Assembly (NCBI GenBank): GCA_951406725.2
Contig: OX597828.1
Span: 11,780,001 to 11,844,000 of the forward strand
DNA from: Octopus vulgaris
Lineage: Eukaryota
DNA length: 64,000 bases
Reading direction: 5' to 3'
The notes below the pieces were generated by a model. That model searched no databases and was not told where the DNA came from. It was given only the letters and a program-made list of their open reading frames with translations. Positions 656 through 49,405 of the stretch are shown here, piece after piece. How positions within the stretch are numbered: position 1 is the stretch's first letter; each line of letters begins with the position of its first letter. A program made the position numbers and the translations under genes.

Positions 656-706
656 TTTGTCAAAATATTTTCGTCGCTTTGAGACCGCGACGTGTTCACT
701 GACAAA
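656..706 (-). ncRNA. Minimal type-I hammerhead-ribozyme-like motif, G3:C8 variant
   Basis: Minus strand: TTTGTCA-GTGAACA-C-GTCGC-(9 nt)-GCGAC-GAAA-ATAT-T-T-TGACAAA; 7-bp stem I, 5-bp stem II, palindromic stem III; 15 nt from a (TA)n tract. Confidence 0.6.
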
Positions 707-787
707 ACTTCGTGCTGCATCTATATATATACATATATATATATATATATATATATATATATATATATATATATATATATATATATA

Positions 788-1192
788 GGCGCAGGAGTGG
801 CTGTGTGGTAAGTAGCTTGCTTACCAACCACACGCTTCCAGGTTCAGTCCCACTGCAGTTCGCACCTTGGGCAAGTGTCTTCTACTATAGCTTCGCGCCG
901 ACCAAAACTTTGTGAGTGGATTTGGCAGACGGAAACAGAAAGAAGCCCGTCGTATAAATGTATATATAGTGTGTGTGTGTATGTTTGTGTGTCTGTGTTT
1001 GTGCCCCTAGCATTGCTTGACAACCGATGCTGGTATGTTTATGTCATTGTAACTTCGCGGCTCGGCAAAAGAGACCGATAGAATATGTACTAGGCTTACA
1101 AAGAATAAGTCCCGGGGTCGATTTGCTCGACTAGAGGCGGTGCTCCAGCATAGCCGCAGTCAAATGACTGAAACAAGTAACAGAGTAAAAGA
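788..1192 (+). mobile_element. tRNA-derived SINE family A (CORE-like CCTTGGGCAAGT, internal TA/TG microsatellite)
   Basis: A/B-box head GGCTGTGTGGTAAG...GGTTCAGTCCC; homologous copies at 2248-2390, 2910-3070, 5570-5890, 9492-9922, 33134-33515, 35533-35822, 47384-47800. Confidence 0.85.
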
Positions 1193-1871
1193 CTATACGT
1201 ATGTATGTATGTATGTATGTAATTATATATATATATATACATATATATATATATGTGTGGGGGTGTGTATATTTATGTATGTATTATATTTAGATATATC
1301 CATATATATAAATGCACATACACACACACACACACATATATATATATATATATATATATATATATATATATATATATATCTGTATATACATATATATGTG
1401 TGTGTGTATACATATTCATACATGGCCACAAAGTGTTCTTCACACATATATAAACATATTCTCTTGTACTGTTTGCATTTTGCGAAGTGTAAAATTAATT
1501 TTCCTTTCTTCTACTACCACGAAGTCGGCATCCAGTCGATTGTTTTTACATTAATCCCACGCCTCATTTCGTTAATGGTGTCACCATGATATTATTTACA
1601 TATACATATACTAGAAGACAATATTTAACATCTTCATTATATTTATGCTAAGGAATATTAGAGAAGAAAATATCTAACTTTTTTCTTTTAGCTGGTGCTT
1701 AGTTACATGCATCTGCCGTCATCTTCTCTAAGTTTAAATGCACCAAAGATATTTCTACATAAAACCAAATAAGACAAAAAAAAATAATACATTTTTACGT
1801 CATTGCAGTAAATTGTATATGTAAGAGATTATGAACGCTTTCACTGAGGCTTTAATAGCTATATATTCAAT

Positions 1872-2231
1872 GCTTAGTACGCCGGACGAAATGCTTAGCG
1901 GTATTTCGTCTGCCGCTACGTTCTGAGTTCAAATTCCGCCGAGGTCGAATTTGCCTTTCATCCTTTCGGGGTCGATAAATTAAGTACCAGTTAAGCTATG
2001 GGGTCGATATAATCGACTTAATCCCTCTGTCGGTCCTTGTTTGTCTCCTCTGTGTTTAGCCCCTTGTGGGTAGTAAAGAAATAGGTATTTCGTCTGCCGT
2101 TACTTTCTGAGTTCAAATTCCGCTGAGGTCGGCTTTGCCTTTCATTCCTTCGGGGTCGATAAATTAAGTACCAGTTACGCACTGGGGTCGATGTAATCGA
2201 ATTAATCCGTGTGTCTGTCCTTGTTTGTCCC
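1872..2231 (+). mobile_element. tRNA-derived SINE family B (MetaSINE/Sauria-like central domain), tandem partial dimer
   Basis: GAGTTCAAATTCC B box followed by GCCTTTCATCCTTTCGGGGTCGATAAATTAAGTACCAG; more than 10 copies in the window. Confidence 0.85.
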
Positions 2232-3399
2232 CATATACAAATATATGCGTGGTTGTGTGGTAAGAAGTTTGCTTCCCATCCACGTGGATGCAGGTTCAGT
2301 CCAACAGTGTGCCAGCTTGAACAAATGTCCACGAAGCACCCAAAAGTTTGTGAGTGGATTTGGTAGACGGAAATTGAAAGAAGGCCATCGTATATATATA
2401 TATATATATATATATATATATAAACACCATATATATATATATATATATATATATATATATATGTATATATAATATGTGTGTGTGTGTGGCAAATGAAAGA
2501 CGGAAGATGGAATAAACGAGAATTGTTTCGATACATCTAGCATCAATCCCTCACCGGTAGGACACTCAAGAACTTGTTCAGGAGAATCCGGGTGATATAT
2601 ATATATATATATATATATATATATATATATATATATATATATATATATATATATATACATATATATATATATATATATATATATACATATATATTTTTTT
2701 AAATGTCTTACTTTGAAAAATTGCATTCGGTGGGATTAGTAATATTTTTGGTAGAAATGACTAATTGTCCCTCTTAGCGTTTGGCATGTATGTATAATGC
2801 CTTCTGGCACGTATGTATAATGCCCTCTATATATAAATATACATATATATATATATACACACACACACACACATATATATATATATATATATATATATAT
2901 ACATATCAATGTGTGTGACACTGTGTCTTTGTGTTTGTGTTTGTCGCCTACTGCCGATTGACAACCGTAGTGTGTTTACATCCCGTAAAGTAGCGGTTCG
3001 GCAAAAGAGACCGATATAATAAGTACCAGGTTTAACAAAAAAATAAGTACTGGGATTGATTCATTTGATATAAAAGATAAAAGAGATATATATAACTATA
3101 TGTACACACACACATACATGTATGTATGTATGTATGTATGTATGTATGAACGAAAATAAGGATAGAAAATTGTTTTCCAAAACTTAATTTCACACCAAGA
3201 ATGGTGGAATCGCAATTTACGGAAACGTTTTCGTATTGAAAGAAAAAATCTCTACTGAAAAATACATTGTAGGTTTTAAGCTTGTAAGCAAAAAAGTTTC
3301 ACAGGGAAATTGAAAATCAGATTTAACCCACCTGCAGCGACAGGAGACAGTTACAGCTTTGGGAACCTAACTAATTGCGGTATTCGTCATGAAATAGTA

Positions 3400-3700
3400 T
3401 CTCTTATAAACGTACAATGATAGAAAACGCAAAAATATATCAGTGGCAGACGAAAATTATGCAGCAGCCGCGGTGGCTTTGCTAAATGCGCATTTCTGCC
3501 TTTTTCTATAGTGTCGGTAGAAAGTAAATGCCTTCACTGGTATAGTGAAACAGTGATTGAAAATCACTGATATCATAATTTTCCATCAGGCTGCATAAAA
3601 TTTGTTACGCACGATAGAAACAGTATTAGTTTGAAACAGCAATCTTTGTATCATACTTAAAGTGCATGCATCATTGAAAGCCTATGAATTTGCCAGCAGA
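3400..3700 (+). mobile_element. Possible decayed Gypsy gag-like fragment
   Basis: Translation ADENYAAAAVALLNAHFLP resembles the Gypsy gag Y..A...L..HF.P motif; disrupted, no LTRs seen. Confidence 0.25.
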
Positions 3701-3894
3701 CAAATCCTATTGACAATATTGACAATATCCAAAGAGGCAGAAATTCCTATTTAACAACAGCACCACAGATTCGAGACGATTTATCGTCTGCCATAAAATT
3801 GTACGACTATAAGTGATTCTATCACAAGACGTATTCTGTAGTGAATAAGATTCCAACAATGTATCTGATGTACGTAAAATATACAGATTGATAT

Positions 3895-47147: not shown

Positions 47148-47383
47148 ATGAGAAAATATGCCGAGTGAAATTTGTGGGGTTTTTTTTGTGATCACGTGTA
47201 TGCTTATGCTGTTGTCTGCATTTTTGTCATGTACAGGGAGCTGGAACAAAAGACCAAGATGGAATTTTGTGTTAAACTTGGGAGGTCTGCGGCAGAGACA
47301 TTGAGCATTCTTCAGCAAGCTTACGGTGATGAAGTAAGAAAATATGGAGAAAATTCATCAGCTTGTGCATGAGGATCGCCTCT

Positions 47384-47800
47384 TTGCTCTTTTACTTGTT
47401 TCAGTCATTTGACTGTGTCTATGCTGGAGCACCGCCTTTGGTCAAGCAAATCAACTCCAGGACTTATTCTTTGTATGCCTAGTACTTATCCTATCGGTAT
47501 CTTTTGCCGAACCGCTAAGTTACGGGGACGTAAACACACCAGCATCGGTTGTCAAGCGATGTTGGGGGAACACACACAGACACACAAACACACACACACA
47601 CACACACATACATACATATATATATATATATATACATATATATACGACGGGCTTCTTTCAGTTTCCGTCTAACAAATCCACTCACAAGGCTTTTGTTGGC
47701 CCGAGGCCATAGTAGAAGACACTTGCCCAAGGTACCACGCAGTGGGAGTGAACCCGAAATCATGTGTTTGGTAAGCAAGCTACTTACTACATAGCCACTT
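47384..47800 (-). mobile_element. SINE family A
   Basis: Homologous to 788-1192. Confidence 0.85.
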
Positions 47801-48715
47801 CTACGTTTGAGGACAATCAACATTTTGAAGCATTTGAGAGAGGACATTCGGTGAAAGCGACCAGAGTATGGAGCGCTAAGAATTGGATTCTTCACGACCA
47901 CAATGCACTCGAGCTCGCCTCACTCTTGAGTTGCTCGCCAAAAACAACATGACACCGCTTCTGCATCCGCTCCAATCGTCAGATTTAGCACCTGCGCACT
48001 TCCATCTCTTCCCCAATATATAAATGCAGCTCAAAGGTTGTCCAGATTGAGGGCAAATCGCAGTAGGTCCTCGACTCGCTTACAGAAAACGACTTCTATG
48101 CCTGATTCCCTGATTCTAAAAGTTCCAGGAAAGCTGGGACAGGTGTATTGCTGCGCAAGGTGACCATTGCGAAGGAGATGATTTTAAAACTTAGGTAAAT
48201 AAGTTATATTTTATTAAACATAATTAGTTTGGGAACCTTTTGATGCCACCTCATAAATGATATGTTTTGCAATAATATAAAAAAAAAACATGAATTATAT
48301 GTAAATATTCTTTCATATGTTCTCTCAGTCACAAGGAAAATAAATCGCATAATAATAGAGCAAAAACAAAAAAAGAAACAAATAAAGCCTGAACGGTTCT
48401 CTCCTCTTAAGGGAAGTTCCTCCCTGCAGTTTCTTAGAAAACTCTCTTTCTCTCCGTCTCTTACTCTGAACCCGACCGTTGATGGTAGCGCCATCAGTCG
48501 CCAGTTAAATTTCACACGCGCGCATCAAATATATTACTTAAGGTTTTCTTGTGCTTTAATCACAACCAAAATACTACTTAATTTTTACGATCAATATATA
48601 CGATATATATATATATATATATATATATATATACATACATACATACATACATACATACATACATACATACATACATACATACATACATACATACATACAT
48701 ACATACATATAATTA

Positions 48716-48888
48716 AATAATGAAGGAAGAAATTGATATTAATCAATTAAAACCAGTGGCTTAGTATATTTTTTTTAAAAAATGATTAAAAATTATATCA
48801 CATACAAAACTTTTAATCTTCGGATTTTTTAAATATGCTAAGCCACTCGTTTTAATTGATTAATATCTATTTCTACCCTAATTATTTA
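48716..48888. repeat. Fold-back element, ~45-55-bp imperfect inverted arms, next to (TACA)n
   Basis: GATATTAATCAATTAAAACCAGTGGCTTAG / CTAAGCCACTCGTTTTAATTGATTAATATC. Confidence 0.75.
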
Positions 48889-49088
48889 AGTTTTAAATAA
48901 CTATGTTCTCTAACCGGTAAATTAGCTGCACAAACGTATTAACTGCAAAGTTATTTCTGGACTCATCGCGCCATAATGAAGACAGTTGTAAAATACCCCC
49001 AAATATAAGTTGCAGAACTTTATACATACTCTCTTTCGGGTGACCGTTCTGTGTCTAGTTCTGGAAACTTTGTTTTATAAGCGACAGA

Positions 49089-49152
49089 CTACGCTGATGA
49101 GCTTGCAGATATTTACATTCATAAATATTAAGCGAAAACCATTGGAACGTAG
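49089..49152 (+). ncRNA. Type-I hammerhead-like motif, canonical core, mutated cleavage site
   Basis: CTACG-CTGATGA-GCTTG...ATATTTA/TAAATAT...TAAGC-GAAA-ACCATTGG-AA-CGTAG. Confidence 0.6.
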
Positions 49153-49367
49153 GTAATCGATTTTTACTTCGTATATTTTTATTTGTTTTGCTCATTTTTA
49201 CATTCTGGCTTTTTGCTGAATTACTTCTTGAGAGCACACTCTTCGTGGTAAAGCGATTCGACGTCTATCTTTAGCATATTAGGAGTCCACTTTGGTTGTC
49301 ATTCCTCTTTATTTTGTATGTTAGTTCCTACACACATTTTTTTCTCTCCTTGTTTTTTTTCTGTGTA

Positions 49368-49405
49368 TCTTTCTGTCGAAGAGCGTAGGCTCGAAACGTA
49401 AAAGA
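49368..49405 (+). ncRNA. Minimal hammerhead-like motif with atypical core, in a (TA)n-linked element (49330-49502)
   Basis: TCTTT-CTGTCGAA-GAGC-GTAG-GCTC-GAAA-CG-T-A-AAAGA. Confidence 0.55.

Follow-up and report, generated by a model that had tools for sequence, protein, structure and literature searches.

A 64,000-nt stretch of the Octopus vulgaris genome (assembly GCA_951406725.2, contig OX597828.1, forward-strand positions 11,780,001 to 11,844,000), referred to here at its full length as the window, carries eight short motifs with the layout of minimal hammerhead ribozymes, and the repeat families to which they belong link them to Penelope-like elements (PLEs). The motifs had been proposed in a first-pass annotation made from the sequence alone, and all eight are present at the positions and on the strands that it gave. 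Its count of at least six unrelated motifs needs some qualification. There are six families, labeled A (656), B (27301/27609), C (29831/31653), D (38578), E (49089), and F (49368), and the eight motifs represent six insertions, the B pair and the C pair each being the two arms of one inverted insertion. Three of the copies are decayed: B2 has a broken helix II, D retains 2 bp of helix I and has no hammerhead fold, and E has lost U16.1 (Table 1).

Table 1. Hammerhead motifs of the window and the elements and tracts around them
Feature	Position	Strand	Description
Family A remnant	645..722	-	5' part of a ~205-nt non-coding element; 3' part replaced by other sequence
Hammerhead A	656..706	-	G3:C8 core GUGAACA; helix I 7 bp, helix II 5 bp; extra base after A9 (C in window copy); palindromic helix III AAUAUU; U17
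(TA)n tract	722..787	.	At 5' junction of A
Family B left arm	27258..27480	-	5'-truncated PLE 3' end, stops at short end; joins (AAT)n 27236-27256
Hammerhead B1	27301..27343	-	U3:A8 core UUGACAA; extra A; G10.1-U11.1 wobble; helix III AUAU
Family B right arm	27489..27737	+	Inverted partner with ~40-nt tail; joins (ATA)n 27738-27814
Hammerhead B2	27609..27651	+	Family B; helix II decayed
Family C left arm	29704..30755	-	Short end; joins (AT)n 29649-29703
Hammerhead C1	29831..29875	-	C4 core CCGAAGA; U10.1-U11.1 mismatch; helix III AGUACU; A17
Family C ORF 3' end	30772..31158	+	C-x4-C-x2-C linker and GIY-YIG endonuclease; mirrored at 30381-30755 (-)
Family C 3' UTR/pseudo-LTR	31159..31861	+	Long (tail) end; joins (AT)n 31862-31902
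Hammerhead C2	31653..31697	+	Sequence identical to C1
Family D partial tandem	38503..38871	-	One ~305-nt monomer (38503-38815), preceded by 3' piece of another (38809-38871)
Hammerhead D	38576..38619	-	Canonical core; helix III AAUCGAUU; helices I and II decayed in window copy
Family E	48711..49320	+	Inverted 5' piece (48711-48807) and about one ~520-nt monomer; 3' end approximate, read from sequence
Hammerhead E	49089..49152	+	Canonical core; long helix II; family helix III ACCA(U)UGGU; A17; window copy without U16.1
Family F	49337..49498	+	Short element at 3' end of E; joins (TA)n starting near 49503
Hammerhead F	49368..49405	+	U6 core CUGUCGA; extra A; helix III ACGU; A17
ORF, open reading frame; UTR, untranslated region; LTR, long terminal repeat.

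In the majority state of all six families the parts follow the type I order (helix I, core, helix II, GAAA, helix III, UH, helix I), and helix III is palindromic in every one. The core had been described as NUGANNA, which fits A, B, D, and E, all of which keep U4 and A6; it fails throughout family C, which has C4, and throughout family F, which has U6. An extra base after A9 accompanies a G10.1-C11.1 pair in A and F and a G-U pair in B; D and E have G10.1-C11.1 with no extra base, and C has U10.1-U11.1. To judge by these sequences, C and F are variants, rather than consensus members, of the PLE-type minimal type I hammerhead. A strict scan admitting any Watson-Crick pair at 3:8 and U or C at position 4 returned four matches in the window and one in 20 local dinucleotide shuffles, and admitting U6 adds hammerhead F. 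No hammerhead family occurred among the 150 best of 319 Rfam matches to the window, the top ones being microsatellite artefacts.

The unusual core letters recur across copies of each family. First-look searches of the assembly (2.8 Gb in 227 contigs), from which 40 matches per family were scored, gave at least 1286 candidates for A, at least 1185 for B, at least 1123 for C, at least 1644 for D, at least 1546 for E, and at least 54 for F. Among copies collected by BLAST, family A has G3 in 60/60 and C8 in 57/60, with G as the extra base after A9 in 57/60; family B has U3 in 33/34 and A8 in 34/34; and family F has U6 in 55/57. Separately, two diverged F relatives (L260:4413-4454 and L121:2490-2531) have C6, a variant reported to favor Mn2+ (PMC7151607). 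CCGAAGA is found in 31 of the 32 listed C copies. Beyond their decayed window copies, the D and E families have complete stems and U16.1. The main state of H17 is G in no family; G17 was excluded from the motif scan by design, but columns built from the BLAST copies bear this out for A, B, D, F, and G, the last being a family related to F.

The abundance of such motifs was estimated from a random sample totaling 1.14 Mb (114 stretches, each 10 kb long and placed at round-number positions), on which all densities given here rest, with positions 3, 4, 6, 7, and 8 left free. Comparison with dinucleotide shuffles had been set as a test of the motifs, and real sequence lies well above shuffled sequence. 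Strict matches numbered 13 for C3:G8 cores (mean of six local shuffles, 0), 4 for U3:A8 (0), 1 for G3:C8 (0), 0 for A3:U8 (0.17), 12 for C4 (0), and 6 for U6 (0.67), or 36 versus 0.8 in these same categories; mismatched 3:8 pairs gave 2 (0.67) and all other cores 5 (6). A relaxed scan gave 111 matches versus about 56 per shuffle, and the reversed sequence gave one match with a helix III of at least 4 nt. Families with A3:U8 did not rise above chance in the 1.14 Mb (no strict match; one relaxed match vs. 0.83). With decayed copies included, 98 copies span the motif, or 1 per 11.6 kb, close to the predicted one per 10 kb, and intact motifs occur once per 33 kb; extrapolation gives a total of about 240,000 copies.

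It had also been predicted that searches with the canonical core would largely miss these motifs, because of swaps at the 3:8 pair. The first half of this prediction stands, as 66 of the 98 copies lack a literal CTGANGA and 32 have it. The second half does not: the misses come mostly from C4 and U6 cores, not from 3:8 swaps. By best seed, 37 copies fall in the C4 type (a class that takes in a U4 subfamily of G), 26 are canonical, 26 U6, 5 U3:A8, and 4 G3:C8, and the C4 and U6 families likely comprise tens of thousands of copies.

Proximity to microsatellites, another feature of the first-pass annotation, proved to be directional. A (TA)n or (AAT)n tract lies within 200 nt downstream of 27/32 strict motifs, compared with 948/4877 random positions (19%; p 6e-15); within 200 nt upstream the figure is 14/33 (p 0.003). 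The motif sits 45-165 nt ahead of the junction with the tract. Family A in the window departs from this arrangement, with its (TA)n tract 15 nt off on the 5' side of the motif and its own 3' end absent, and the tract of E is 350 nt distant because F lies between them.

The 3:8 pair is part of the active hammerhead conformation, and its behavior among lineages carries much of the case for selection. It is Watson-Crick in 35 of the 36 strict motifs of the 1.14-Mb sample with a helix III of at least 4 nt. From 216 matches in 1.91 Mb we obtained 30 clusters, of which 7 with cores other than U4/A6, C4/A6, or U4/U6 were set aside. The compensatory swaps claimed at this pair are borne out in the remaining 23, which have C-G in 18, U-A in 3, G-C in 1, and a mismatch in 1, a single AT-rich match. 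Random pairing would make all 22 matched clusters Watson-Crick with p about 3e-5, a rough value that omits the mismatch and treats some kin clusters (F with G, C with L314) as separate. Within family F, whose subfamilies are 72-100% alike, conservation across 57 copies is 0.98 in the core columns and 0.87 in the flanks, with position 7, where all four bases occur, at 0.33; position 7 is also the sole core change among the common differences listed for contigs of four runs labeled as four organisms. Further, a compensatory C-G/G-C exchange in helix I sets F apart from G (14 chosen rows), and a compensatory helix II change separates C from L314. We regard the motifs as real, selected, and abundant PLE-type hammerheads.

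Several comparisons bear on the origin of C4. At position 31659, contigs of runs labeled as two other organisms have U, and C is kept in two runs. U4, along with a helix II closed by the same U-U, is found in the older C relatives L199 and L314 and in L330, the nearest relative from outside. Within G it is a younger subfamily that has C4, and C4 is also present in a further family, K, and in two singletons. We take C4 to be a derived state that arose repeatedly, in at least three lineages. CpG decay was rejected as an explanation for the U4/C4 split in G, since the base at position 4 goes with a diagnostic site farther upstream (12:1 vs. 1:8, p 2.4e-4) and no G-to-A changes are seen at G5. Of 84 loci from outside that are related to the C protein, 27 have a sense motif, the matches being 23 C3:G8 and 5 U3:A8 (one of these inside the ORF and probably due to chance); G3:C8 and U6 were not found in these 84 loci, and C4 occurred once, on the opposite strand.

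The proposal that the motifs belong to PLEs or retrozyme-like elements was upheld on both counts, for different families. Families B and C are the 3' pseudo-LTR (pLTR) ends of PLEs, that of C being intact. An undamaged C element at L187:2946-6587 (contig C23, about 4.57-4.60 Mb) has a 1173-codon ORF, counted from the ATG, with reverse transcriptase (RT) and C-terminal GIY-YIG domains (RVT_1, E 1.8e-05; GIY-YIG, E 1.4e-04; both just under the Pfam cut-offs, which the window fragment passes at 29.2 bits), and a CX2-5CxxC linker and a CCHH motif can be read from the translation. Its hammerhead lies 500 nt past the stop codon, and in tandem arrays with a 4.27-kb unit the following ATG comes 247 nt after it. 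Its best copies share 99.3-100% identity, and family C is best read as a very young PLE. The family B motif follows, by about 210 nt, a different and decayed GIY-YIG ORF (E 5.6e-04), broken in pieces, with an RT-like FIDD motif upstream. In both families the motif is on the sense strand, 200-500 nt after the GIY-YIG ORF, and partial tandems or pLTRs, an inverted partner, an optional tail, and microsatellite bias are all seen. In families A, B, and C the 3' end falls at either of two discrete positions separated by 35-55 nt, and the two arms of an inverted pair usually have one each. Named relatives of the window retroelement protein include oyster proteins. One 4172-nt contig, from a run guessed to be RNA, spans the tested family C stretch in one piece. 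The C pLTR (window:31480-31600) contains CCAAT repeats and, some 70 nt ahead of the motif, a TATA-like box, and the D monomer (window:38660-38740 and other D copies) has ATGCAAAT and a TATA-like box upstream of its motif; these elements may be promoter boxes.

The other four families are non-coding. Copies of D repeat head to tail with a period of 302-307 nt in 6/25 loci and copies of E with a period of 516-530 nt in 5/25 loci, two whole motifs being present in each of L324, L327, and L118. Judged by these arrays, D and E are retrozyme-like tandem monomers, each unit having a single type I hammerhead, with D (~305 nt) inside the retrozyme size range of 170-400 nt and E (~520 nt) above it. A and F are non-coding elements of ~200 nt. 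A copies have nothing in common past about 25-30 nt upstream of the core, save inverted copies of A itself, and F and G mostly end 70-90 nt upstream, with one F pair extending to 143 nt. No unit-length direct repeats were found in 44 A or 25 F loci, where the 5' boundary is hard, and a pair of F copies separated by 3.37 kb, considered as one full element, proved to be separate insertions. A, D, E, and F are likely non-autonomous derivatives of PLEs. Of the ORFs beside E copies, none was shown to be the parent of E: the one at L119 belongs to a Hydra-like element with its own hammerhead, the one at L137 is a decayed C relative, and a third adjoins an E copy at L135. In the search for such ORFs the family C endonuclease query was out of frame and recovered close copies only, which the L137 query partly made up for. 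Many isolated pieces of ~55 nt in the random sample (e.g., L212, L230, L240, L252) match only family E, just beyond its short end. The Hydra-like PLE (L119:2504-3328, L266-L285; at least 17,083 first-look candidates) has an endonuclease end with CxxC and CxH and, about 290 nt after the ORF, a hammerhead with a canonical core and a 53-nt branched helix II.

Small hammerhead variants with a diminished stem III were reportedly described by Lünse, Weinberg, and Breaker in 2017, and are said to be associated with PLEs, to have a short palindromic stem III, and to cleave as dimers. The closest described counterparts are the pLTR hammerheads of metazoan PLEs (Cervera and De la Peña 2014, PMC4209133), which are likewise type I, with many families per genome and opposite-strand pairs 100-700 bp apart. 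The available text of that study, which includes molluscs, reports minimal motifs with a palindromic or absent helix III and an extra base between A9 and 10.1, a need for dimers with low activity, and U3-A8 covariation with about 1,300 matches in Schistosoma. The representatives in its Fig. S3 have CUGANGA, UUGANAA, and one UUGAAGA, and that list contains no G3:C8, C4, or U6 core and no cephalopod; the octopus motifs differ in a helix II of up to ~80 nt and in the majority share of non-canonical cores. Single instances of related cores are on record elsewhere: natural U3-A8, A6C, and U10.1-U11.1 are given in the accessible part of Perreault et al. (2011, PMC3088659), which states the 3:8 pair and cites a viroid U4C, a change less active in vitro yet sufficient for the viroid (PMC3088659, PMC7151607), and A6C, which works poorly in Mg2+, does better in Mn2+ (Naghdi et al. 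2020, PMC7151607). As described in those texts, such variants are rare single cases, whereas C4 and U6 in octopus are fixed family-wide.

The elements themselves also have clear relatives. Neptune/Nematis-type PLEs with endonuclease (Craig et al. 2021, PMC8557442) share the C-terminal GIY-YIG, CX2-5CxxC linker, CCHH motif, partial tandems, inverted partner, and 30-40-bp tail, and the portions consulted describe the (TA)n bias, inversions, and tails of PLEs; family B departs from them in its C-x11-CxxC linker, its CxxH in place of the usual two cysteines of the GIY-YIG core, and its (AAT)n target. In the PAc Poseidon element of Anolis, according to the sections consulted of Frangieh et al. (2024, PMC11167929), a hammerhead lies upstream of two RT start sites that yield short and tail ends; cleavage is protein-assisted, C3G/G8C partly rescues, no RNA ends mapped to the cut site, and catalytic mutants inserted normally, the hammerhead being dispensable for insertion in vitro. 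PAc and the octopus elements thus both have a hammerhead ahead of two 3' ends and an AT-rich target, and the two 3' ends of A, B, and C correspond to the PLE tail mapped there to two RT start sites. The G3:C8 pair engineered and partly active in PAc is natural in family A. The PAc start sites are inside the ORF and have no target homology, whereas the ends of family C are both upstream of the ATG and the long end abuts its own (AT)n run. D and E resemble non-LTR retrozymes (Cervera and De la Peña 2020, PMC7229834) as non-coding head-to-tail monomers with a type I hammerhead, and differ, as far as that text goes, in being mostly dispersed copies of 1-2 units in microsatellites with PLE-style junctions, known here from genomic copies, and in the length of E. 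A derivation of retrozymes from PLE pLTRs is proposed in the consulted part of Li et al. (2026, 10.64898/2026.07.22.740005). Three of these sources (PMC4209133, PMC3088659, PMC8557442) already cover minimal hammerheads in PLEs, their action as dimers, the U3:A8 swap, and microsatellite targeting. G3:C8 was met only as an engineered variant and A6U not at all in a literature consulted mostly as open-access text without figures or the 2017 paper, which does not establish absence from print. What appears to be new, within a known kind, is the natural occurrence of G3:C8 and of U6 throughout whole families and the repeated origin of C4.

Taken together, we think it probable that two PLEs and four likely non-autonomous derivatives carry minimal type I hammerheads close to their 3' ends, and that these hammerheads are weak cutters whose activity would be conditional on dimers or on the protein of the element. 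From position, strand, junction structure, and covariation, all of which are observed, we infer a pLTR-driven transcript, microsatellite nicking, internal priming, and conditional cleavage. The transcript would start in an upstream pLTR or monomer and be bound by the RT-endonuclease, which would nick the microsatellite and prime reverse transcription at either of two internal sites a short way downstream of the hammerhead. Because helix III is only a palindrome of 4-12 nt, an active core would need a second copy, which could lie 305 or 520 nt off in D and E and 4.27 kb off in C tandems, or help from protein. Most inserted copies would be made from uncut RNA. Among 25 A copies chosen by their downstream part, 18 begin 5' of the core, with no pile-up of 5' ends and none exactly at the cut site, +37 (ends at +17, +25, +32, +39, +44, +45, and +74), which argues that most templates were uncut; this read-through and the absence of cut-site ends match the PAc findings as given in the text of PMC11167929. 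Cutting would likely serve an occasional step, such as the release of unit-length or circular RNA, and selection on master copies would keep the geometry of the active fold (the 3:8 pair, G5, A9, GAAA, UH, and stems) while tolerating rate-lowering changes such as C4, U6, and G3:C8.

Some observations weigh against this account. Core and flank conservation are nearly equal in A (0.98/0.97), B (0.98/0.96), D (0.95/0.93), and G (0.93/0.92), so that the signal of selection rests on the comparison between lineages and on F; near equality is expected for copies decaying after insertion. No coding parent was found for A, D, E, or F among the copies seen. The best fold computed with ViennaRNA was the palindrome-paired dimer for C and the window D copy only, other pairings being preferred for A, B, F, and the D copy at L092. 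Finally, because changes at A6 and U4 lower activity in other hammerheads, as reported in the consulted text of PMC3088659 and PMC7151607, F and C may not cut at all.

In an alternative that we consider unlikely, though the best placed of the rivals, the fold would persist chiefly as a signal for binding or assembly of the PLE protein beside the priming sites, catalysis being incidental and lost in the C4 and U6 lineages. Those lineages are the youngest or most numerous, to judge by the near identity of C copies, by G copies with C4 (0.94 vs. 0.89 with U4), and by the 63/98 copies in C4- or U6-seeded classes, and both the reading of copies through the cut site and the unaffected insertion of catalytic mutants in vitro (PMC11167929, in the sections consulted) would fit. 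A mere signal sits poorly with a 3:8 pair kept through three identities and an H17 that is G in no main state, and the minimal template in that study needed ORF sequence, not the whole pLTR. Efficient retrozyme-type ribozymes, with every family cycling via self-cleaved circular RNA and genomic copies arising as fragments of rolling reverse transcription, are a much less probable explanation: the periods and double motifs of D and E agree with it, and it may hold for those two families only, since A, F, and G have a hard 5' boundary with no wrap-around, B and C are ends of coding elements, and helix III is too short for monomer activity. That the motifs are chance look-alikes in AT-rich, repeat-rich DNA, multiplied by repeat expansion, is scarcely credible, despite the many chance matches of relaxed scans and the 4/7 window motifs that fold no better than shuffles, as it is refuted by the shuffled, reversed-sequence, and outside-locus controls, the 22 distinct Watson-Crick clusters, the fixed position and strand relative to ORFs and tracts, and the same motif behind outside relatives.

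Other features were noted in passing. Past another C-terminal GIY-YIG (L186:7618-8200, L162, and L144), CUGAUG is followed directly by a 6-bp helix and AAA, with neither A9 nor a type I helix I, possibly another hammerhead arrangement. PLE-like ORFs also occur in four bacterial genome records (L410-L413), three of them on 2-kb contigs and L410 with the same hammerhead; these are probably animal DNA in metagenome bins. In the window, 45318-45728 and 40068-40430 (-) have exon-like frames of a host gene, the first with a VWA domain, which we take to resemble inter-alpha-trypsin inhibitor heavy chain; 4287-4733 (+) is a mariner-type transposase fragment (PF01359, E 6e-17); and 7569-7931 and 19520-20134 are tandem repeats of 184 and 251 nt with dispersed copies, similar to short interspersed elements.

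No new ribozyme class and no new kind of element is revealed by these motifs. Their interest lies in the purpose of PLE hammerheads, which are poor cutters and dispensable for insertion in vitro. One host provides a natural mutational series (canonical, U3:A8, G3:C8, C4, and U6), in which sister lineages differ at one core base, and censuses based on CUGANGA can leave some two thirds of a genome's motifs of this type uncounted. A more speculative possibility, which we offer tentatively, is that the PLEs here have been selected to detune their own ribozyme: the most successful lineages would have independently fixed cores that lower the rate (C4 in at least three lineages, U6, and G3:C8) while keeping the geometry of the fold, turning it into a protein-gated switch or a non-cutting assembly signal. 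Family C is a ready reagent for PLE biochemistry and could supply the protein. If detuning is true, the roughly 240,000 copies and the intact, recently active family C would make the purpose of the PLE hammerhead directly testable.

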